Source: Candidatus Hermodarchaeota archaeon
Lineage (GTDB): Archaea > Asgardarchaeota > Hermodarchaeia > Hermodarchaeales > Hermodarchaeaceae
NCBI GenBank assembly: GCA_016839365.1
Contig: JAEOUH010000074.1
Span: forward strand, 1-58,303
Direction of reading: 5' to 3'
DNA: 58,303 nucleotides
A program made the translations under genes and the position numbers. The notes beneath the pieces were generated by a model that worked only from the letters and a program-made list of their open reading frames with translations, had not been told where the DNA came from and did no database searches. Below, one piece after another: positions 10,487 through 48,960 of the stretch (position 1 is the first letter of the stretch; every line of letters begins with the position of its first letter).

Positions 10487-10561
10487 TGGTGGAGTGACCG
10501 GGACTTGAACCCGGAACCTCGTGCGTGCGAGGCACGCGATCTACCATTGATCTATCACCCC
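10487..10561 (-). tRNA. tRNA-Ala(CGC), intron-less, CCA encoded
   Basis: GGGGTGA/TCACTCC with G3:U70; CGTGC-CT-CGC-AC-GCACG anticodon arm. Confidence 0.97.
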
Positions 10562-10575
10562 ACTAAGTTGCGGGG

Positions 10576-12969
10576 TTATTTGGGCGGGGGTATTTTTGTG
10601 TTATCCTTTGTGTGGAACTTCAGGGTTTGTATGTTATGCATGTGTTTGAGATCTTCAGCATAAGGTTGGAGTATTTTGGGTGCTATTACTGTTGGAAGCG
10701 CTTCTCGAAGGCTTATCTTATTGTCTTTTTTATATTTCCAGATGTCGGCGTTGAATTTAGTAAGCGCTTCTGTTGGGTGGCTATCTGTGATCTCTCTGAA
10801 AGGTTCTGGGAATTGTTGTTTGTGAATAGAAGTCTTGGGGTCATAGAGTTCGCGGTAAATCTTTTCTGTAATGTAGGGGCAGATGGGAGCGAGGAGCTTC
10901 AGAATGGCGTTAAGGACGGTGTGAAGTGTATGCCAGGCTGCGGAACTGCCTGCTTTATCTTGTTCTGAATAAGCGCGGCCTTTGACGAGTTCAAGATAGT
11001 GGCTAGCGAAGAGGTCCCAAGTGAATGTACGTAACTCACGGGAGGGAATGATGAAATCTAGTTTTTTGTATCCTTCTATTGTTTTTTGGATAAGTTGGTT
11101 TAGTTCAGAGAGAATCCATTTGTCGGCTGGTTGGTAATTAATAGACTTCTCTTTAGGTTGGGGGAATCCAGAGATGAACCGAGAGATGTTCCAGAGTTTT
11201 GTAAGGAATCGGTGGGCACCAGTGAGACGCCCCTCATTGAATCGGTAGTCTGAGCCTAGGGAAGCTTCAAGTGCCCCCCAGAGGCGGAACGCATCAGCAC
11301 TATACTTCTCGATAATTGGGTTGGGGTCGATGGTGTTGCCACGGGATTTGCTCATGGCTTCGCCCTTCTCGTCAAGACCGTGGCCACTAATCCAGACGTG
11401 TTGGAATGCAGGGGCTTGGAAGAGTTGGTATGTACGCAGGATAGAGTAGTAGAGCCAGGTACGAACAATGTCTTTACCCTGTGGGCGGATGCTGGGTGGG
11501 AAGTGTGCCCGGAAGAATTCGTCATCTTTGGTATAGAAGATGGTGATGAGACCACTGATGGAAGAATCCATCCAAGTGTCTAATGTTCGTGTTTCTCCCT
11601 CAAACGGACCATTAGCTTCACATTTGGGGCATTTATCGATGGGTGGTGAATCCTTCCATGGTTGGTAATAAGGCCCAGGAGGTGGAACTATGGTTTCGTT
11701 ACATGCTTTGCAGTACCAAAGAGGAACTTCGGTCCCATAGTAACGGCGTCGACTGATTGGCCAGTCATGGCTGACGCTGTTGATCCAGTCCACTAGTATC
11801 TGTTTGTTCTTGGGAGGGTAGAAGGTCATTTTGTCAACAGCGACTCGGAGATCATCAATGTATTGGAGTTGTTTCAGATAATATTCGGGCATTGAAACAA
11901 ACTCGATGGGGTTCCGACTGCGCCAACACGTGGGTGTACGGTGTGTTGTACTTTCTTCATTCAGGAGAAGATTCTTGGCTTTCAAGTCTTTGCGGATGGC
12001 TTTCCGACCTTCGGTGACCGTGAGGCCCTTATACTGGCCAGTAACATCAGTGAGTTTGCCTTCTGGATTTAGGGCGTTAATCGGTTCTAATTGTAGTTCT
12101 CGGAAAAGGCGAACGTCCGTGTAATCGCCATAACTACAGACCATAACAACCCCTGTACCAAATTCGATACGGGCCTCATGGTGAGGGATGATGGGAACTC
12201 TTTTTTTGTACAATGGAGTAACTGCAGTTTTTCCATGAAGATGTTTGTATCGGTCATCGTCAGGATTCACTAGAACTGCAGCACAGGCTGAGAGAAGTTC
12301 GGGTCGGGTTGTAGCAATCGGTAATTCTTCTTCGGTGCCTTCGATGATGAACTTAAGAGTTGAAAGAGTTGTTTCGAGATCTTTGTATTCGACTTCCGCA
12401 TCCGCAATAGTGGTTCCGCATTCGGGGCACCAATTGTTAGGGCGGTCGTCGATGTAGATAAGGTCTTTATTATACAATTCGATGAAGGTGCGTTGAGTTA
12501 CTGCTCGATAATCCGAGCTATCAGTGCGATACATTTCATCAAGTTTGAAGGAATTGCAACTGAGGCCCAAGCGTTGGGCATGTGCCACAACGACTTCTTC
12601 ATTACGGTCTAAAAACTCGGCGCATAACTCAAGGAACTGTTGCCGTGGAATTTCATGCATACTCTTTTTGTAGGCTCTTTCCACTTGAACTTCGATTGGT
12701 AACCCATTCCGATCCAATCCCATAGGAAAAATGACATCAAATCCTTCCATGCGCTTGGTACGGGCAATCATGTCGATCTGTGCATAGTGAATGGAGCCAC
12801 CTACATGCCATGGTCCGCTTAGGTATGGTGGGGGTGTATCAACGGAGAAAACAGGCTTTTTTGTATCTTTATTGAAGGCATAGAGTTGGTCCTTGGTCCA
12901 TAATTTAAGGATTTCTTCCTCGATCTCCGGTTTCCAGCGCTTCTCTTTTAGCTGCATATCCTGCCCCAT
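10576..12969 (-). CDS. valS: Valine--tRNA ligase
   Basis: DTPPPY, HVGG (HIGH-like), ATTRPE, DWPISR, DTWMDSS, AMSKS. Confidence 0.96.
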   Translation of the reverse strand: MGQDMQLKEKRWKPEIEEEILKLWTKDQLYAFNKDTKKPVFSVDTPPPYLSGPWHVGGSIHYAQIDMIARTKRMEGFDVIFPMGLDRNGLPIEVQVERAYKKSMHEIPRQQFLELCAEFLDRNEEVVVAHAQRLGLSCNSFKLDEMYRTDSSDYRAVTQRTFIELYNKDLIYIDDRPNNWCPECGTTIADAEVEYKDLETTLSTLKFIIEGTEEELPIATTRPELLSACAAVLVNPDDDRYKHLHGKTAVTPLYKKRVPIIPHHEARIEFGTGVVMVCSYGDYTDVRLFRELQLEPINALNPEGKLTDVTGQYKGLTVTEGRKAIRKDLKAKNLLLNEESTTHRTPTCWRSRNPIEFVSMPEYYLKQLQYIDDLRVAVDKMTFYPPKNKQILVDWINSVSHDWPISRRRYYGTEVPLWYCKACNETIVPPPGPYYQPWKDSPPIDKCPKCEANGPFEGETRTLDTWMDSSISGLITIFYTKDDEFFRAHFPPSIRPQGKDIVRTWLYYSILRTYQLFQAPAFQHVWISGHGLDEKGEAMSKSRGNTIDPNPIIEKYSADAFRLWGALEASLGSDYRFNEGRLTGAHRFLTKLWNISRFISGFPQPKEKSINYQPADKWILSELNQLIQKTIEGYKKLDFIIPSRELRTFTWDLFASHYLELVKGRAYSEQDKAGSSAAWHTLHTVLNAILKLLAPICPYITEKIYRELYDPKTSIHKQQFPEPFREITDSHPTEALTKFNADIWKYKKDNKISLREALPTVIAPKILQPYAEDLKHMHNIQTLKFHTKDNTKIPPPK

Positions 12970-33757: not shown

Positions 33758-36700
33758 TTGGAATACCACGAATCCTACGTCAATGCACTTCGGGAAGAAA
33801 TTCAGCGAATTGCCAAAATTGCTGAAGCAGCCCGAAAAAAAGGACTTGACCCAACAACTGAAGTAGAGATTCGCCCCGCAGATGACGTTGCAGGCCGTGT
33901 TGAAGGCCTTGTTGGACCCCCTGGCGTTGCTGAAAGAATCCGGCAACTAAGTGAAACAGAACCTGCCCCCAATGTCGCCTTTGAAGTGGCTCGAGAAATA
34001 GTACAAAGAGCACAAGCCAGGGGTGGGGATTTAGAGAACGCAGCAGAACAAGCGATTCGAACAGCTTTAGCTATACTCACCGAAGGTATTACAGCTGGTC
34101 CCATTGAAGGCATCGCCACAGTAAAAATAAAAACAAACGTCGATGGGAGCCGTTACCTAGCAGTATATTTTGCAGGCCCAATTCGTGCCGCAGGGGGAAC
34201 AGAAGCTGCCCAAACAGTAATCGTTGCCGACGCAGTCCGCCAACAATTGGATTTAGACAACTACAAACCTTCAACCGAAAACGTGGAACGATACGTTGAA
34301 GAAGTCGATCTGTATAACCGGGTATCTCACCTTCAATATCCCTCCAAACCTGAAGAGGTTCGCTTGGCCGCACGAAATCTTCCTGTTGAAGTTACCGGTG
34401 AACCTACTGCAGAGGTTGAAGTCACGGGTTATCGTGACCTTCCTGGCGTCGAAACAAATCGGCTTCGAGGCGGCGCAATTCTTGTCTTGAATGACAGTAT
34501 CCTTGGAAAAGCCCACAAACTAGCCAATCTAGTTGCACAGCTCGATATGTCTGGTTGGGACTGGCTAGAAAACCTAACACCCCAAGAAACAGATGAAGAA
34601 AAAGCGGAAAAACGAATCCAACCCAAAGAAAAATACCTCGAAGACATCATCGCAGGACGTCCCGTGTTAGCCTACCCTTCACGAAAAGGTGGATTCCGCG
34701 TTCGTTATGGCCGATCAAGAAATACTGGCCTAGCCGCTCTTGGAGTTCACCCTGCCACCATGGTGCTTCTTGATAGTTTCGTTGCCTGTGGCACTCAATT
34801 AATCATTGAGCGACCAGGGAAGGGTTGTGTAGCAATGCCTGTGGACTCCATTCATGGTCCCATAGTCAAAACCTATAATGGAAGTATCCATCGGATTGAC
34901 ACAGTTGACGAAGCTAAAAAAATCAGTGACTCAGTTTCAAAGATTCTTTTCTTAGGGGATCTATTAATCGGATTTGGGGAATTCCGTGAAAATAACCACC
35001 TTCTGGTTCCTGCAGGATATTGCCCCGAGTGGTGGGCACAAGAGGTTTTGATGGGATTCATAGTGGCTTCTGACTCTGTTCGCCAAAACCTCTTTCAACA
35101 ACTGGATAAGCACACATTCCTTCAATTCATCACGGAACCTTTCAAAGCCACTCCTGACGCTTTAGAGGCCCTTACCATTTCGACAACTCTAAAAGTTCCT
35201 CTCCATCCTCGACATCTCTTCTTTTGGGAAGACCTCTCAATCCATCAACTGATGGAGTTTAAAGAATGGGTTAACGATCTTACTCCCACCCAAGAGAATG
35301 GACACGTTGTCACGTTGCAGGGAACCATAGATGAGGGAATCGAAGAGATCCTTGAGACGCTTGGCATTCCATGTAACTGCAAAGAAAACCAAATTTGGTT
35401 TCACGAAGCCGCCCCAATTCTACATGCCATGTTCATCGGACCCCATAAATGCAAATTTGCCTCTTCAGAGGCTGATGAGAGTGATGCCTTAGATTACTTA
35501 CAGAATAACTGGTCAATTCAGATACATCCCAAGGGGACCTTCTATATTGGTGCACGGGTCGGACGTCCTGAAAAAGCTAAACGACGACAAATGTCACCAC
35601 CTCCCCATGGAATATATCCCATCGGAAATGCTGGAGGTTCAATGAGAGATATTCGGAAAGCTGAGAAACAAAAGAAAGTGAAAGTCGAAGCCAATTACCG
35701 CCTTTGCCCACGATGTGGGACGATCACGTTCAAACGAATCTGTTCAAGTTGTCACATTGAAACTGAACAAATCCACTGGTGTCCAATCTGCAAAGCCGAT
35801 AGCAAAACCTCGAAATGTGCGCGATGTGGAGCTGAGGCAAACACATATGGGCCCATCGAATCACCACTCAAAAAGGAACTCCAACATACGCGTAATAAAT
35901 TAAGCCAAAAACTACCCAGCCGGATAAAAGGCGTTAAAGGGCTGATGAGCAAAAATAAGACCCCTGAAATCCTCGAAAAAGCAATATTCCGTGCAAAATA
36001 TGACCTATTCGTCTACAAAGATGGCACTATCAGATTCGATATGACTGACGCACCCCTTACCCATTTCAAACCCTGCGAAATCAACGCGTCACTCGACGCA
36101 CTTCATGCTCTTGGATATCATTTTGACAAAACTGGCGCACCACTTACTAACCCTAATCAAGTTATTGAACTTAAAATTCAAGACATCGTTGTTCCCTTTG
36201 ATTGCGCAAAATACCTTTTCCGGGTATCCAAGTTTGTTGACGATCTTCTCAGTCAAGTTTACGGCTTAGAACCCTTCTACAACTTCAAAACCCCCGAAGA
36301 CCTCAAAGGCCATCTAGTAGTCGGCCTCGCCCCCCACACCTCAGCCGGCGTCATCGGCCGCATCATCGGCTTCACACCCCTCCGCGTCTGCTACGCACAC
36401 CCATTCTGGCATGCCGCAAAACGACGCAACTGCCTCCACACTGATGAAGAGGTCATCATCTGGGATACTAATGATCAAAAACTTCTCAAACTCCCATTAG
36501 GTCAAATCGTTGAAGAACTCTTAGAAAAGAGAACACCAACCAAGGTTGTCGATGACTTTGGGACACTTGCCATCGATAATCCCTTTACTCACTGGCGAAC
36601 CATCAGTATCGACCCCACCACCCATCAACCCATCTACCAACCCATCAAACATTGGATCAAAGGCACCAGCAACCACTGGCTCACAATCACCACCCACTCT

Positions 36701-38812
36701 GGACGCACCATCACCATGACCCCTGACCACAACGCCATGATCTGGAACCCCACCACGCAAACCATCGAACGCACCAAAGCCCACCAACTCAAACCCGGCG
36801 ATCAGATCCCCATTCTCAATACGATTAACATTCCTGAAAGAAATCCTCCCCAAACCATCAACATCCTCCAAGAACTTACTGACAACCTACCAAACACTGA
36901 ACAATTCCAAACCTTCAAACACCAAACCAGACTCAGAAACGCCGAAACCTGGATGCGAACAACACTCCACCGATTCGCCCACTCTCTCAATCCATCAGAC
37001 CCACTCGGTCCACGAAAAATTAACAAAATACTCCAACACTACTTCGGACCCCAAATTCCTCGTCGACGCAAAACTCGCCTTTTCACTCAGGCGTGGTACA
37101 CTTCTATCCCCCTAACTCACCTCGAAATCCTCGAACACGAAGGCGTCTTCCAATGGAACGACATTCCTTCTACCGCGCAAATTGGCATGGCCCGCGATGA
37201 CCACACCATCACCCCCTACATCCCATTCAACTCAAATTTCGTAAGACTGCTTGGTTACTATGTCGCCGAAGGCTACATCCGCGATGAACCCAACTGCTAC
37301 CAAACCAACTTCAGCGTCCCCCACCCCGCCCTACGAACACACCTCCGAAACCTCATCCAAACAGTCCTCGGATCAGACCCCTACTACAAAAAAGATAACG
37401 ATCAACTCGTCCACACCGGACGCATCCACGCCTACCTCCTCGCTTATGCGTGGAAAATTGGGAAAAACGCACTAATAAAACGAGTTCCTACTTTTGTATT
37501 TAATTTGCCAAGAGAATTTCGACTTCACTTCCTTTCAGCTTTGATTGATGGAGCTGGTTCCATTATCCCTCGGTCATGCAGAACTACAATTTACACTGCA
37601 AACGCAAAACTCGCTAAAGACTATTCATTTCTTCTATCGACATTGGGTGTATTTGCAAGAATCCATCAGGCAAAAGGTGGTCGGTTTGGTCAAGCAGTTT
37701 TAAAACGATATGAGGAATTAGGAATCGAGCCCAAAGAGACAGAAGGCTTGTATCACGTAGATATCCCTGGAAGAGAAAATATTCCCTTTTTAGAAGATTT
37801 GTCTTTGATTAATGCTGAAAAAGACGAAAGAAGAAGAAAGATACTCGATAAGGGTTTTCCCAAAATTCAATTCTTGCCAAAAATCGGAGAACACGTTATT
37901 CTTGATCAAATAAAAGGAATAATTCCATCTCAAAACAATGATTCTTCATATTGTTTAGAGGTCTTGAAAGAAGAACATCAAAATAATCTCTATAACAATA
38001 TATCGACTTCTAATTGTTTAGTTTTTCAGTGTGATGGGGATGAGGATAGTGTGCTATTGGCGCTTGATTCGATGTTGAATTTTTCGCGGGCGTATTTGCC
38101 GACATCGCGTGGTGGGTCGATGGATACGCCGTTGGTGTTGAGTGTGTCGATTACGCCGAAGGAAATTGATGATGAGGCACACAATATTGATGGGAGTGGG
38201 ATTTACCCGTTGGAATTCTATGAAAAGACGAGGCAGTTTCTTGATCCCAAGGACGTTGAGGATATCTTTGATTTGGTGGCGCACCGGATTGTCGATCATC
38301 GAATTGATCCCACGGCCGAGTCATACGGGTTAGAGTTTTCTCACCCGACGGGAGACGTGAACTATGGACCTCGTGTAACCACTTATACGAAACTGAAGAC
38401 GATGGAGGAGAAAGTGAAACGGCAACTAGCCTTGGGCAGACGTATTGCTGCTGTAGATGTCCAAGATATGGCTCGGCGGCTCCTCGATTCGCATTTCCTT
38501 CCCGACATCTTTGGAAATATTCGTGCCTTCGCTTCTCAACAATTCCGCTGTACAAGTTGTAATGAGAAATACCGTCGTATCCCCCTAGCCGGGCGGTGTC
38601 CTGCATGCTCAGGAAAACTCATTCTAACTGTGACCAAAGCCGGAATCACCAAGTATGTAGATTTAGCTTCCCAAATTGTAGAGGACTATCAATTACCTTT
38701 ATACTATCAACAGCGACTCGAGATAGCTAAAGGGGTTATCAATTCCATCTTCCCATCTGAAGAGGTTGATCAACAAGCCACCTTGAAGCAGTTTTCAACG
38801 AAGAGTTCGTAA
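33758..38812 (+). CDS. polC: DNA polymerase D large subunit DP2, intein-containing
   Basis: GLDP, YFAGPIRAAGGT, RYGRSRNTG, GRPEKAK, zinc fingers, YAHPFWHAAKRRN...CDGDED, C-terminal CxxC motifs. Confidence 0.97.
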   Translation: MEYHESYVNALREEIQRIAKIAEAARKKGLDPTTEVEIRPADDVAGRVEGLVGPPGVAERIRQLSETEPAPNVAFEVAREIVQRAQARGGDLENAAEQAIRTALAILTEGITAGPIEGIATVKIKTNVDGSRYLAVYFAGPIRAAGGTEAAQTVIVADAVRQQLDLDNYKPSTENVERYVEEVDLYNRVSHLQYPSKPEEVRLAARNLPVEVTGEPTAEVEVTGYRDLPGVETNRLRGGAILVLNDSILGKAHKLANLVAQLDMSGWDWLENLTPQETDEEKAEKRIQPKEKYLEDIIAGRPVLAYPSRKGGFRVRYGRSRNTGLAALGVHPATMVLLDSFVACGTQLIIERPGKGCVAMPVDSIHGPIVKTYNGSIHRIDTVDEAKKISDSVSKILFLGDLLIGFGEFRENNHLLVPAGYCPEWWAQEVLMGFIVASDSVRQNLFQQLDKHTFLQFITEPFKATPDALEALTISTTLKVPLHPRHLFFWEDLSIHQLMEFKEWVNDLTPTQENGHVVTLQGTIDEGIEEILETLGIPCNCKENQIWFHEAAPILHAMFIGPHKCKFASSEADESDALDYLQNNWSIQIHPKGTFYIGARVGRPEKAKRRQMSPPPHGIYPIGNAGGSMRDIRKAEKQKKVKVEANYRLCPRCGTITFKRICSSCHIETEQIHWCPICKADSKTSKCARCGAEANTYGPIESPLKKELQHTRNKLSQKLPSRIKGVKGLMSKNKTPEILEKAIFRAKYDLFVYKDGTIRFDMTDAPLTHFKPCEINASLDALHALGYHFDKTGAPLTNPNQVIELKIQDIVVPFDCAKYLFRVSKFVDDLLSQVYGLEPFYNFKTPEDLKGHLVVGLAPHTSAGVIGRIIGFTPLRVCYAHPFWHAAKRRNCLHTDEEVIIWDTNDQKLLKLPLGQIVEELLEKRTPTKVVDDFGTLAIDNPFTHWRTISIDPTTHQPIYQPIKHWIKGTSNHWLTITTHSGRTITMTPDHNAMIWNPTTQTIERTKAHQLKPGDQIPILNTINIPERNPPQTINILQELTDNLPNTEQFQTFKHQTRLRNAETWMRTTLHRFAHSLNPSDPLGPRKINKILQHYFGPQIPRRRKTRLFTQAWYTSIPLTHLEILEHEGVFQWNDIPSTAQIGMARDDHTITPYIPFNSNFVRLLGYYVAEGYIRDEPNCYQTNFSVPHPALRTHLRNLIQTVLGSDPYYKKDNDQLVHTGRIHAYLLAYAWKIGKNALIKRVPTFVFNLPREFRLHFLSALIDGAGSIIPRSCRTTIYTANAKLAKDYSFLLSTLGVFARIHQAKGGRFGQAVLKRYEELGIEPKETEGLYHVDIPGRENIPFLEDLSLINAEKDERRRKILDKGFPKIQFLPKIGEHVILDQIKGIIPSQNNDSSYCLEVLKEEHQNNLYNNISTSNCLVFQCDGDEDSVLLALDSMLNFSRAYLPTSRGGSMDTPLVLSVSITPKEIDDEAHNIDGSGIYPLEFYEKTRQFLDPKDVEDIFDLVAHRIVDHRIDPTAESYGLEFSHPTGDVNYGPRVTTYTKLKTMEEKVKRQLALGRRIAAVDVQDMARRLLDSHFLPDIFGNIRAFASQQFRCTSCNEKYRRIPLAGRCPACSGKLILTVTKAGITKYVDLASQIVEDYQLPLYYQQRLEIAKGVINSIFPSEEVDQQATLKQFSTKSS
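36431..38029 (+). mobile_element. Intein (533 aa) with LAGLIDADG endonuclease domain in PolD DP2
   Basis: Inserted at KRRN|CDGDED; begins CLHTDEEV, block B TPDH, block C LLGYYVAEG, block E FLSALIDGAG, ends LVFQ followed by Cys. Confidence 0.93.
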
Positions 38813-46870: not shown

Positions 46871-47785
46871 TCAGCACTCAACCCTTTGCTTCAGAATCTT
46901 CCATTCGCGCTCAATCCCCCGCTCAAACTCCTCCACCCGCGCGGGGTTCTTAATCAACGTACGAAATCGACCCTGCGGCTTCAAATAATCCATCAACGGC
47001 TTCCGCTTCACCTTCCCTTCAGCAATCTGCTTACTTCGGCCCAGAAACCGCCACTCCTCCCCTTCTTTCTCCCACATAATCCACACGCCTGTGTCCACTG
47101 CGAGTTTACCCATTTCCACTGTATCCCATGTCAAATATCGCCAACCCGTCGGACACATCGTATGAATCTCAATATATCGCGTCCCCACAAATTCCTTCGC
47201 TTTCGAATACGTCTCATACACTAACCGTGGATACGCCGCCGAAATCGACGCTGTATACGGAATACCATGCTCCGCCATAATTCGCGCAAACGGCTTACGA
47301 TGCTGCATTTTCCCCGTAGGTGTTGTTGTCGAAAACGACCCATACGGCGTAGCCCCAGAACGTTGCATCCCGGTATTGCCGTATGCTTCATTATTGTAGC
47401 AGGTGTAGATGAAGTTGGTTTGGCGTTCGGCAGCACCGCTGAGGGCTTGGATGCCGATGTCATAGGTTCCACCGTCACCTGCCCAGGCCATGAGATTGAT
47501 TTCTTTATCTTTACCCATATATTTGAGTCCGGCAGCGATTCCAGAGGCGGCTGCGCCTGCGGTCATAAAGGCTGTATTTAGAACTGGTACGCAAAGGCCA
47601 TTTTTGGGATAGAGTCCTTGGATAACAGACATGCAGCAGGCAGGAACTGTAAGAATGGTATTATCACCCAAAGCTTTGAGTGCATGGCGGATGGCGATTG
47701 TAGCACCACATCCTGCGCAAGCGGCGTGACCTAGTTCGATGTATTCTTCTCTGGGTAAATCTTTGATAGCTACCATCTTCTTCAC
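46871..47785 (-). CDS. porB: 2-oxoacid:ferredoxin oxidoreductase beta subunit
   Basis: ACAGCG, GDGGTYDIG, NNEAYGNTG, CPTGW. Confidence 0.92.
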   Translation of the reverse strand: MKKMVAIKDLPREEYIELGHAACAGCGATIAIRHALKALGDNTILTVPACCMSVIQGLYPKNGLCVPVLNTAFMTAGAAASGIAAGLKYMGKDKEINLMAWAGDGGTYDIGIQALSGAAERQTNFIYTCYNNEAYGNTGMQRSGATPYGSFSTTTPTGKMQHRKPFARIMAEHGIPYTASISAAYPRLVYETYSKAKEFVGTRYIEIHTMCPTGWRYLTWDTVEMGKLAVDTGVWIMWEKEGEEWRFLGRSKQIAEGKVKRKPLMDYLKPQGRFRTLIKNPARVEEFERGIEREWKILKQRVEC

Positions 47786-48960
47786 CTTTTTAATCCGTAG
47801 AATATGTCTGGTTTCGCTTCTCCTTTGTCTGCTACATCAAATCCGATTTTGAACATTTTCTTAATATCTGTGTGTCTTACATCTCGACCGCCGAGTCCGG
47901 CGATGACTCCTTGGACAGGTATGGTTTGACCCCCTCGGTAGAGTGCTGATCGGATTTCGGTTGCGGCTCCTCCAAGGTGCCCATATGAGAGGCTACGATC
48001 GATGACTACAAAGGCTTTGGCTTTCTTTGCTAGGGCTTGAATTTGTTCGGCTGGGAATGGTCGGAAAACACGGAGTCGTGCAGATCCTGCTGCTACGCCT
48101 TCGTTTCGCAGTTCGTCAACAGCAAGTTGTGCTTCTTCTCCCATTGTTCCTAATGCAATGAGGATAACCTCTGCATCATCACAATGATATTCATTAATGA
48201 ATTGACCATGATCACGTCCGAAATGTTTTTTGAAATCTGCTTCAACTTTCGGGATTAGTTTTCGTGCCGCTTCAAACCCTTCGTGGATTGCGTAACTAAG
48301 CTCGTAATAATATTCGGGCCCTGCAATGTTTCCAGTTGCCATCGGATCCTTGGGATCCAATTTCCAGTGACCTGCTTCATAGGAAGGGAGAAAGTCAGTA
48401 ATTTCGTCATGTTCATACACTTCAATCGAAGTGAATGTATGGCTGAGAATGTAGGCATCTAGAGCTACCATTCCGGGAAGTAGGACCTTGGGATCTTCAC
48501 ATAATCGAAAGAGCATCAGGACAGTATCATAAACTTCCTGATTATTTGATGCATACAATTGAATCCAGCCAGTATCACGTTGTGACATTGTATCTGTATG
48601 GTCAGACCAGATATTCCAGGGGGGCCCAAGAGAACGATTGACAACAGGCATTACGATAGGTAAGCGTGAACGACCTGCCCAATGAAGCATCTCGTGCATC
48701 AGTGCTAAGCCATGAGATGAAGTGGCGGTGAATGTCCGGAGTCCTAAGGCCGAAGCCCCAATACATGCAGCCATTGCACTGTGTTCTGACTCAACACGAA
48801 CATATTCAGATTTCAGCTCTCCGTTCTCTACGAATTCTGCGATTTTTTCTACAATCGTCGTTTGTGGGGTTATCGGATATGCCGCAATAACTGCGGGAAT
48901 TGCTGTTCGTGCAGCCCAAGATGCAGAATGATTCCCTGTCACAGATATAATTTTCGACAT
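47782..48960 (-). CDS. porA: 2-oxoacid:ferredoxin oxidoreductase alpha subunit
   Basis: AYPITPQT, VESEHSAM, TATSSHGL, FRPFP, GLGGRD. Confidence 0.92.
   Translation of the reverse strand: MSKIISVTGNHSASWAARTAIPAVIAAYPITPQTTIVEKIAEFVENGELKSEYVRVESEHSAMAACIGASALGLRTFTATSSHGLALMHEMLHWAGRSRLPIVMPVVNRSLGPPWNIWSDHTDTMSQRDTGWIQLYASNNQEVYDTVLMLFRLCEDPKVLLPGMVALDAYILSHTFTSIEVYEHDEITDFLPSYEAGHWKLDPKDPMATGNIAGPEYYYELSYAIHEGFEAARKLIPKVEADFKKHFGRDHGQFINEYHCDDAEVILIALGTMGEEAQLAVDELRNEGVAAGSARLRVFRPFPAEQIQALAKKAKAFVVIDRSLSYGHLGGAATEIRSALYRGGQTIPVQGVIAGLGGRDVRHTDIKKMFKIGFDVADKGEAKPDIFYGLKR

Follow-up and report, generated by a model that had tools for sequence, protein, structure and literature searches.

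Replication origins, transcription and the clusters of changes associated with breaks are all known to leave local strand-asymmetric footprints, but to our knowledge such footprints are not known as sharp, saturated, kilobase-scale mirror images at intein homing sites. At DNA breaks, the classical source of clustered mutations is damage to the resected 3′ tails. During DNA synthesis, G/T mispairs are a more frequent polymerase error than C/A mispairs, and left uncorrected they push the nascent strand towards G+T (PMC6159521). A full-text search of the literature found no prior description of skew or codon asymmetry beside inteins or homing endonucleases. Here we analyse a mirror-image codon skew around the intein that interrupts polD (DNA polymerase D, or II, large subunit DP2) in an Asgard archaeon, Candidatus Hermodarchaeota archaeon. 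The stretch of DNA under study, hereafter the window (58,303 nucleotides; GenBank assembly GCA_016839365.1, contig JAEOUH010000074.1), is contig C54 of a 2.2-Mb metagenome-assembled genome (MAG) that consists of 93 contigs and is 84% complete.

Results

The polD gene (33758–38812 of the window, + strand, as are all features of the gene given below) matches the Pfam profiles PolC_DP2_N, PolC_DP2_central and PolC_DP2_cat, and together with its intein it forms a continuous reading frame of 1,684 codons, within which the skew is centred. An earlier note on this DNA, made from the sequence alone, had counted by hand a switch in codon endings at the intein, and the recount was exact: 34 of the last 36 N-extein codons end in A or C, and 34 of the first 36 C-extein codons end in G or T. 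Given the third-position keto (G or T) content of 0.42 in the rest of the extein, the binomial probabilities of these counts are 1e-6 (left) and 3e-11 (right). Positions throughout the genome were scored as the number of A/C-ending codons among the 36 before plus the number of G/T-ending codons among the 36 after, with a maximum of 72. Across 525,856 codon positions in 2,072 long open reading frames (ORFs) the mean score was 36 (standard deviation 4.5). The PolD intein site scores 68, and the genome maximum obtained without skipping inteins is 63 (empirical P < 2e-6).

The bias fades with distance in a gene of otherwise mixed codon usage, as had also been claimed. In successive 20-codon bins leading away from the site, the fraction of A/C-ending codons on the left is 0.90, 0.95, 0.90 and 0.50, and the fraction of G/T-ending codons on the right is 0.95, 0.95, 0.80, 0.70, 0.65 and 0.60, corresponding to a decay over approximately 60 codons on the left and 120 on the right. 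Codon counts place the left arm, an N-extein tract of A/C-ending codons with a GC content at third positions (GC3) of 0.6–0.85, at 36248–36430, and the right arm, a C-extein tract of G/T-ending codons, at 38030–38299, fading by ~38400–38500. The arms of the skew are only 0.2–1.2 kb long, and local GC skew is as extreme as −0.58. Because the protein encoded by the left arm is highly conserved (..GLAPHTSAGVIGRIIGFTPLRVCYAHPFWHAAKRRN), the skew is synonymous.

The base spectrum was resolved at silent sites. At four-fold degenerate sites the left arm contains C 0.64, A 0.24, T 0.10 and G 0.01, and the right arm G 0.63, T 0.22, A 0.11 and C 0.04, against a genome background of A 0.27, C 0.27, G 0.17 and T 0.28; in one congener C on the left reaches 0.91 and G on the right 0.90, and the highest value of G on the right is 0.92. 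The Leu, Arg and Ser codon families move in the same way (CTC versus TTG, CGC versus CGG, TCC versus TCG/AGT). At two-fold sites the AT-ward choice prevails, with A over G on the left and T over C on the right. GC3 is raised on both arms (0.6–0.85 versus ~0.4) and declines with distance. On either side it is the strand running 5′→3′ away from the centre that is rich in G and then T, so that the strand symmetry and origin-like polarity described earlier hold. Between 90 and 97% of silent sites in the arms are affected; at this level of saturation, polarising substitutions between close alleles is uninformative.

The boundaries of the intein (36431–38029; 533 amino acids) were read from the sequence and from comparison with intein-free homologues, which run ungapped as KRRN-CDGDED across the insertion point. 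The insert splits the PolC_DP2_cat profile between its positions 176 and 177, such that removal of the insert restores the host motif. Within it, Pfam Intein_splicing matches residues 59–524 with 38.1 bits (cut-off 35.8), and LAGLIDADG_3, representing the homing-endonuclease domain, matches with 35.3 bits. The residues needed for splicing are present, namely Cys1 (TGC, 36431–36433), a terminal Gln (CAG, 38027–38029) and the +1 Cys (TGT, 38030–38032), with the intein ending in ..VFQ directly before the C-extein CDGDED. A C-terminal Gln is known from a Pyrococcus PolII intein. LAGLIDADG motif 1 (LLGYYVAEG; 37247–37273, located by sequence and alignment) retains its acidic residue. In motif 2 (LSALIDGAGS; 37532–37561, located by alignment) the sequence DGAG carries an Ala codon (GCT, 37553–37555) where eight of eight congeners carry Asp, as DGDG or DADG, at a position that we take to be catalytic (compare D20 of I-CreI). 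Only the first of the two motifs therefore bears its acid, one active site has probably been lost from this genome's intein, and the endonuclease may have no activity or retain only that of a nickase.

The mirror had been described as centred on the insertion site. A switch does lie at that site, but a second A/C gradient fills the N-terminal two-thirds of the intein and abuts a junction inside it. The intein begins with a mixed stretch of 49 codons, followed by an A/C-rich tract (36578–37447; keto content 0.30) that involves all three codon positions, is most biased at its right end and encodes protein rich in Thr, His, Pro, Gln and Asn. Over the N-terminal two-thirds, third-position keto content is 0.04–0.16 beside the junction and relaxes to 0.3–0.4 at the intein start; near 37400 it is 0.14–0.18 in this genome and 0.04–0.12 at the same place in congeners. 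The tract ends abruptly near 37445; beyond it, the final 0.58 kb of the intein is rich in A and T and free of skew. The gradient within the intein and the extein's own, sharper A/C gradient against the intein N-junction together form a saw-tooth, in which the N-terminal two-thirds of the intein behave as left flank. Elsewhere in the genome, a 538-amino-acid ORF (C56:143–1756, − strand) with a weak LAGLIDADG match and a helix-turn-helix has an N-terminal half that is A/C-rich at all codon positions and rich in Thr, His, Pro and Gln, like the N-part of the PolD intein.

The internal junction is a point of exchange. Up to ~37440 the intein is 95–100% identical at the nucleotide level to the allele of genome G007, whose exteins are 82–92% identical; between 37460 and 38040, a module that contains LAGLIDADG motif 2 and the C-terminal splicing region, identity to G007 is 39–54%, yet identity to G012 is 90–93%, with exteins of only ~72%. 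The breakpoints of the module fall at 37442–37501 (left) and ~38048 (right). Across the genus there are two types of module, alpha (ending in Gln) and beta (ending in Asn), with ~35% amino-acid identity between them, and two types of intein N-part, found in varied combinations. These mosaic identities mark the intein as a recent recombinant and point to ongoing exchange at the polD locus, in support of the earlier interpretation. Because the A/C tract ends within ~30 nucleotides of the left breakpoint and the right breakpoint is where the G/T arm starts, the unskewed core of the mirror is the swapped module.

The same switch is found in eight intein-bearing polD genes of congeners (Promethearchaeota MAGs assembled in different studies), in some of them more strongly than here, and this conservation in independent MAGs excludes the assembly chimera that had been raised as a possible refutation. 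In G008, 35/36 and 76/84 codons before the intein end in A or C, and 33/36 and 84/84 after it end in G or T (117/120). Four intein-free polD alleles were available from the family, three from a sister genus and one from this genus. In the sister-genus alleles L044, L045 and L046, the best change-point of the whole gene (~1,150 codons) lies 0, 5 and 5 codons, respectively, from the empty KRRN-CDGDED site, showing that the link to the homing site holds even where the site is unoccupied. In L039, from this genus, it lies 27 codons away. A change-point scan of intein-free polD genes from four other families detected no change-point at the site. Averaged over aligned columns in steps of 100–200 codons, third-position keto content in intein-bearing congeners is 0.46, 0.34 and 0.16 before the site and 0.84 and 0.59 after it; the corresponding values are 0.41, 0.35 and 0.27, then 0.72 and 0.63, in the intein-free alleles of the family, and 0.45, 0.44 and 0.39, then 0.44 and 0.42, in outgroups.

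The empty sites also differ in sequence. The +1 Cys of NCDGDED is kept in every outgroup, and in three of the four empty alleles of the family it has changed from Cys (TGY) to Ala (GCY): L039 (G011), L044 (G017) and L046 (G018). Since intein splicing requires a nucleophile at +1, the Ala alleles read as intein-resistant, and we infer that the lineages with empty sites are not intein-naive. The +1 Ala changes are signs of intein–host conflict, and polD alleles with and without the intein co-occur within the genus. G018 contains two empty polD alleles, one with Cys and one with Ala at +1. The earlier note had held that a switch in intein-naive lineages would speak against its proposal; the family's empty alleles do show the switch but look exposed or resistant, and the four other families show none.

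Coincidence with intein sites extends to part of the remaining genome. The MCM-b intein site scores 54 and the RNR site 53, each a score reached by fewer than 170 of the 525,856 positions, and at the MCM-a site the left arm has 30 of 36 codons ending in A or C. In congeners, where intein boundaries were set by junction motifs, the mark is strong at MCM inteins (84/100 and 89/100) and moderate at RNR. The genome-wide coincidence that had been anticipated is thus borne out for PolD, MCM and RNR, and fails for PolB, for the inteins of an AtpA-like protein, an 836-amino-acid protein and a Hel308-like helicase, and for the polD inteins of most other families. Universality across inteins is refuted by PolB and by the three other intein hosts in congeners. 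Two MCM alleles are present in this MAG, one with intein-a after GDPGTAKS (C15:3–1823) and one without (C12:4078–6801). Where they overlap, 103 of 111 nucleotides are identical (93%), and six of the eight differences fall in the last 24 nucleotides before the site (for example, Ser AGC versus TCC).

Approximately 45 patches of extreme third-position skew occur in the genome, many of them at contig ends. Only one polarity is observed: at the codon level a score of at least 58 is reached at 44 positions for the C/A→G/T switch versus 0 for the reverse, and at the nucleotide level the numbers are 151 versus 0. On contig C85 (1–10800) a C/A→G/T switch at ~680–700, just past the gene for ribosomal protein S19, is followed by ~10 kb over which the + strand remains G/T-rich (0.55–0.71) whichever way the genes point; the bias is thus a property of the DNA strand, not of the coding strand.

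Strong switches at conserved motifs were found in five intein-free genes, encoding H+-PPase, RadA, a thiolase, an Fe-S protein and PorB. The porB gene (2-oxoacid:ferredoxin oxidoreductase beta; 46874–47836 of the window, − strand) has a switch of 59/72 near 47362–47374, between GN and TGMQ of its thiamine pyrophosphate motif. In a distant relative (G021:C48), a 364-amino-acid intein interrupts a porB paralogue between YMN and TG, four codons from the position of the porB switch, which fits the earlier suggestion that such scars could be used to map past cutting sites. For the H+-PPase and RadA switches, no intein was found in 40 relatives. Assemblies break near these switches, in H+-PPase in G018 and in RadA in G011, G003 and G017, and G006 has a 60-nucleotide gap or frameshift. 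At the breaks, contig ends overlap (G018:C64/C122 and G011:C33/C2); the overlapping ends hint at population heterogeneity.

Two further patches were noted. The last 115 codons of an actin homologue (C21:30576–31622) include stretches without any G/T-ending codon; the contig stops within the gene, at ..ERMYSVW, and the rest of the gene was sought in the assembly and not found. In the window, tRNA-Ala (10487–10561, − strand), the sole tRNA that ARAGORN detects there, is followed by a G/T-rich + strand to ~10900 over the 3′ end of a class-I aminoacyl-tRNA synthetase gene (10576–12969, − strand).

Discussion

The skew at polD has a single pattern and polarity, coincides with the homing site and with a recombination junction, is conserved in the family and is accompanied by signs of intein–host conflict. 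We give roughly an even chance to the explanation that we favour, in which the mark is a heritable, strand-level footprint of recurrent recombinational repair, or gene conversion, at the homing site and the intein module. Here we infer the breaks, repair synthesis as the asymmetric step and the origin of the base bias. According to the model, a break at an empty site or within the module would be followed by resection of the 5′ ends, the missing segment would be copied from another allele, and the resected strands of both flanks would then be re-made 5′→3′ away from the exchanged segment. If strands re-made in this archaeal family drift in the order G>T>A>C, the top strand would become C/A-rich to the left and G/T-rich to the right. 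Purifying selection on PolD would restrict the drift to silent sites in the exteins, and the weakly constrained N-part of the intein would drift at all codon positions. Strands of the right sense could be produced by fill-in after resection, or as nascent strands displaced during synthesis-dependent annealing, and the bias in bases could come from uncorrected misinsertion of the G·T type or from biased correction of heteroduplex.

Several observations weigh against such a repair footprint. Cleavage and repair at the site are conjectured from assembled sequences. Some occupied sites bear no mark: the PolB intein site of this genome scores 42, and the inteins of the AtpA-like protein, the 836-amino-acid protein and the Hel308-like helicase in congeners score 37–46. 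Among seven other Asgard families with a polD intein at this very site, one shows a moderate switch (25/36 and 24/36) and most show none, so that a lineage-specific factor would be needed. The endonuclease of this genome's own PolD intein is without the acidic residue of motif 2. To saturate silent sites, each allele lineage would need a very large number of events, or fixation would have to be strongly biased; the difficulty would be smaller if flanking DNA is carried along with the intein in many rounds of homing, or if such a bias in fixation acts. Finally, the abundance of C on the left (0.64–0.91) and of G on the right (0.63–0.92) at four-fold sites demands transversions or a GC-favouring force, and neither misinsertion nor heteroduplex correction alone predicts C>>A and G>>T there. 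Taken over all alleles, the mark is tied to the site rather than to the intein DNA; an intein is neither sufficient nor necessary for it, and the mark is a trait of this family.

Two simpler sources of the bias were rejected. Models with transitions only (deamination, or pure G·T misinsertion) are insufficient where C reaches 0.91 and G 0.92 at four-fold sites; the keto-biased footprint of the earlier note needs amending on this point, as a keto bias built from transitions alone cannot yield the C content of 0.64–0.91 seen on the left arms. Deamination or other damage of resected 3′ tails predicts the opposite polarity, which also counts against a break-based account.

An unlikely alternative, though the strongest of those considered, is that the asymmetry arises by biased correction of heteroduplex rather than from new mutations, as a strand-asymmetric form of biased gene conversion acting through EndoMS/NucS. 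This endonuclease cleaves G/T, G/G and T/T mismatches but not A/C, A/A or C/C (PMC4838380), and a NucS homologue is encoded in the genome (C15:38174–38503; 113 bits). In the heteroduplex of the flanks, formed by the invading 3′ tail and the donor strand, keto bases on the tail would give way to the donor's amino bases more often than amino bases to keto, enriching A/C on the strand whose 3′ end faces the site. The polarity that we derive from this model agrees with observation, transversions are accommodated (G→C via G/G, T→A via T/T), and GC3 is raised on both arms as at recombination hotspots. However, T/C is cut better than A/G, so that A should equal or exceed C on the left, where the observed ratio of C to A is ~3:1 to 15:1. 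The outcome of a double-strand cut within a D-loop is a further weak point of the model, and since NucS is widespread in archaea it leaves the confinement of the mark to this family unexplained.

The polarity is also that of replication origins, and many of the ~45 patches lie in intein-free genes (H+-PPase, RadA, thiolase, the 10-kb domain of C85). Both features would follow from fixed start points of DNA synthesis, origin-like or used for primase restart, that fire every generation independently of homing and coincide with inteins through shared conserved sequences; firing once per generation would also remove the problem of event number. We consider this improbable. The switch lies within five codons of the polD site, four codons from the porB intein point and at the MCM and RNR intein sites, and the second gradient stops at a recombination junction inside the intein. 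The arms end after 0.2–1.2 kb, short of the next mark, and the centre is coding, where an origin would have a non-coding, AT-rich unwinding element that contains origin-recognition boxes (ORBs) and usually neighbours orc1/cdc6, with arms extending to the termini (ORBs and orc1/cdc6 were not searched).

It is very improbable that selection on translation placed fast codons before the intein and slow codons after it to assist co-translational folding and splicing. Any gene that crosses a mark does read C/A-ending codons first and G/T-ending codons second, in either orientation. Against this, alleles and genes without an intein also show the switch, the bias keeps to the DNA strand where genes of opposite orientation adjoin, the first and second codon positions are affected too inside the intein, and G/T-ending codons are not rare, T being the commonest base at two-fold pyrimidine sites (0.58). 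A chimeric assembly, sequencing error or chance amino-acid composition, which the fragmented, incomplete MAG and the many skewed patches at its contig ends might suggest, has a negligible chance of being the cause when MAGs from different studies share the pattern, the PolD protein is intact and conserved with synonymous changes, and the empirical P is as low as it is.

The repair footprint may have a more general form, which we put forward tentatively and think rather less probable than the footprint itself: in this Asgard family every recurrent recombination-initiating break would leave a heritable, strand-asymmetric footprint through a strongly biased, lineage-specific repair step (G>T>A>C on the re-made strand). 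If true, the sites at which homing endonucleases cut now or did so in the past could be read off the genome, among them empty 'ghost' sites in porB, H+-PPase and RadA, and modular exchange of cassettes within inteins would be exposed. If the repair reading holds, active or extinct endonuclease targets and recombination junctions could be located from sequence alone in uncultured archaea. The traffic of selfish elements would be seen to alter codon usage in the DNA nearby, and even its amino-acid composition. The reading would also point to a repair polymerase or a step of mismatch correction that is unusually biased, in a lineage near the origin of eukaryotes. Because silent sites in them converge on the same base, skewed tracts distort measures of codon usage, estimates of substitution rate and phylogenetic signal.

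Among known systems, clustered mutation (kataegis) at double-strand breaks, from damage to resected single strands, also consists of clustered, strand-coordinated changes that switch strand at the break point; however, damage to 3′ tails would place G/T to the left of the break and C/A to its right, opposite to the PolD site, and the spectrum here is not C→T only and represents an evolutionary equilibrium filtered by selection rather than a single burst. GC-biased gene conversion shares with this locus a local shift at a recombination-initiating site and a raised GC3 that falls with distance, but it is strand-symmetric, whereas the present bias is towards C on one strand and towards G on its partner, with two-fold sites moving AT-ward. 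Origin skew has the identical polarity, each strand being G/T-rich 5′→3′ away from the centre, and shares a proposed cause, an excess of G/T over C/A mispairs in the nascent strand (PMC6159521). It differs in scale, with arms of hundreds of kilobases as against 0.2–1.2 kb at PolD, where the amplitude is far higher, and in its centre, which at PolD is a homing site or recombination junction.

Also close are LAGLIDADG intein homing systems that co-convert the flanking extein, such as PI-SceI/VMA1 and the haloarchaeal PolB and MCM inteins. As in those, a replication protein is interrupted within a catalytic motif, intein-bearing and intein-free alleles exist side by side, empty sites show changes in the target site and at +1, and the intein is a mosaic with flanks more alike than the remaining gene. 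What sets this locus apart is the mark, which empty sites retain and some occupied sites lack. The constituent parts are ordinary, being a PolD intein at its classical site, homing and co-conversion; the mirror skew is not.

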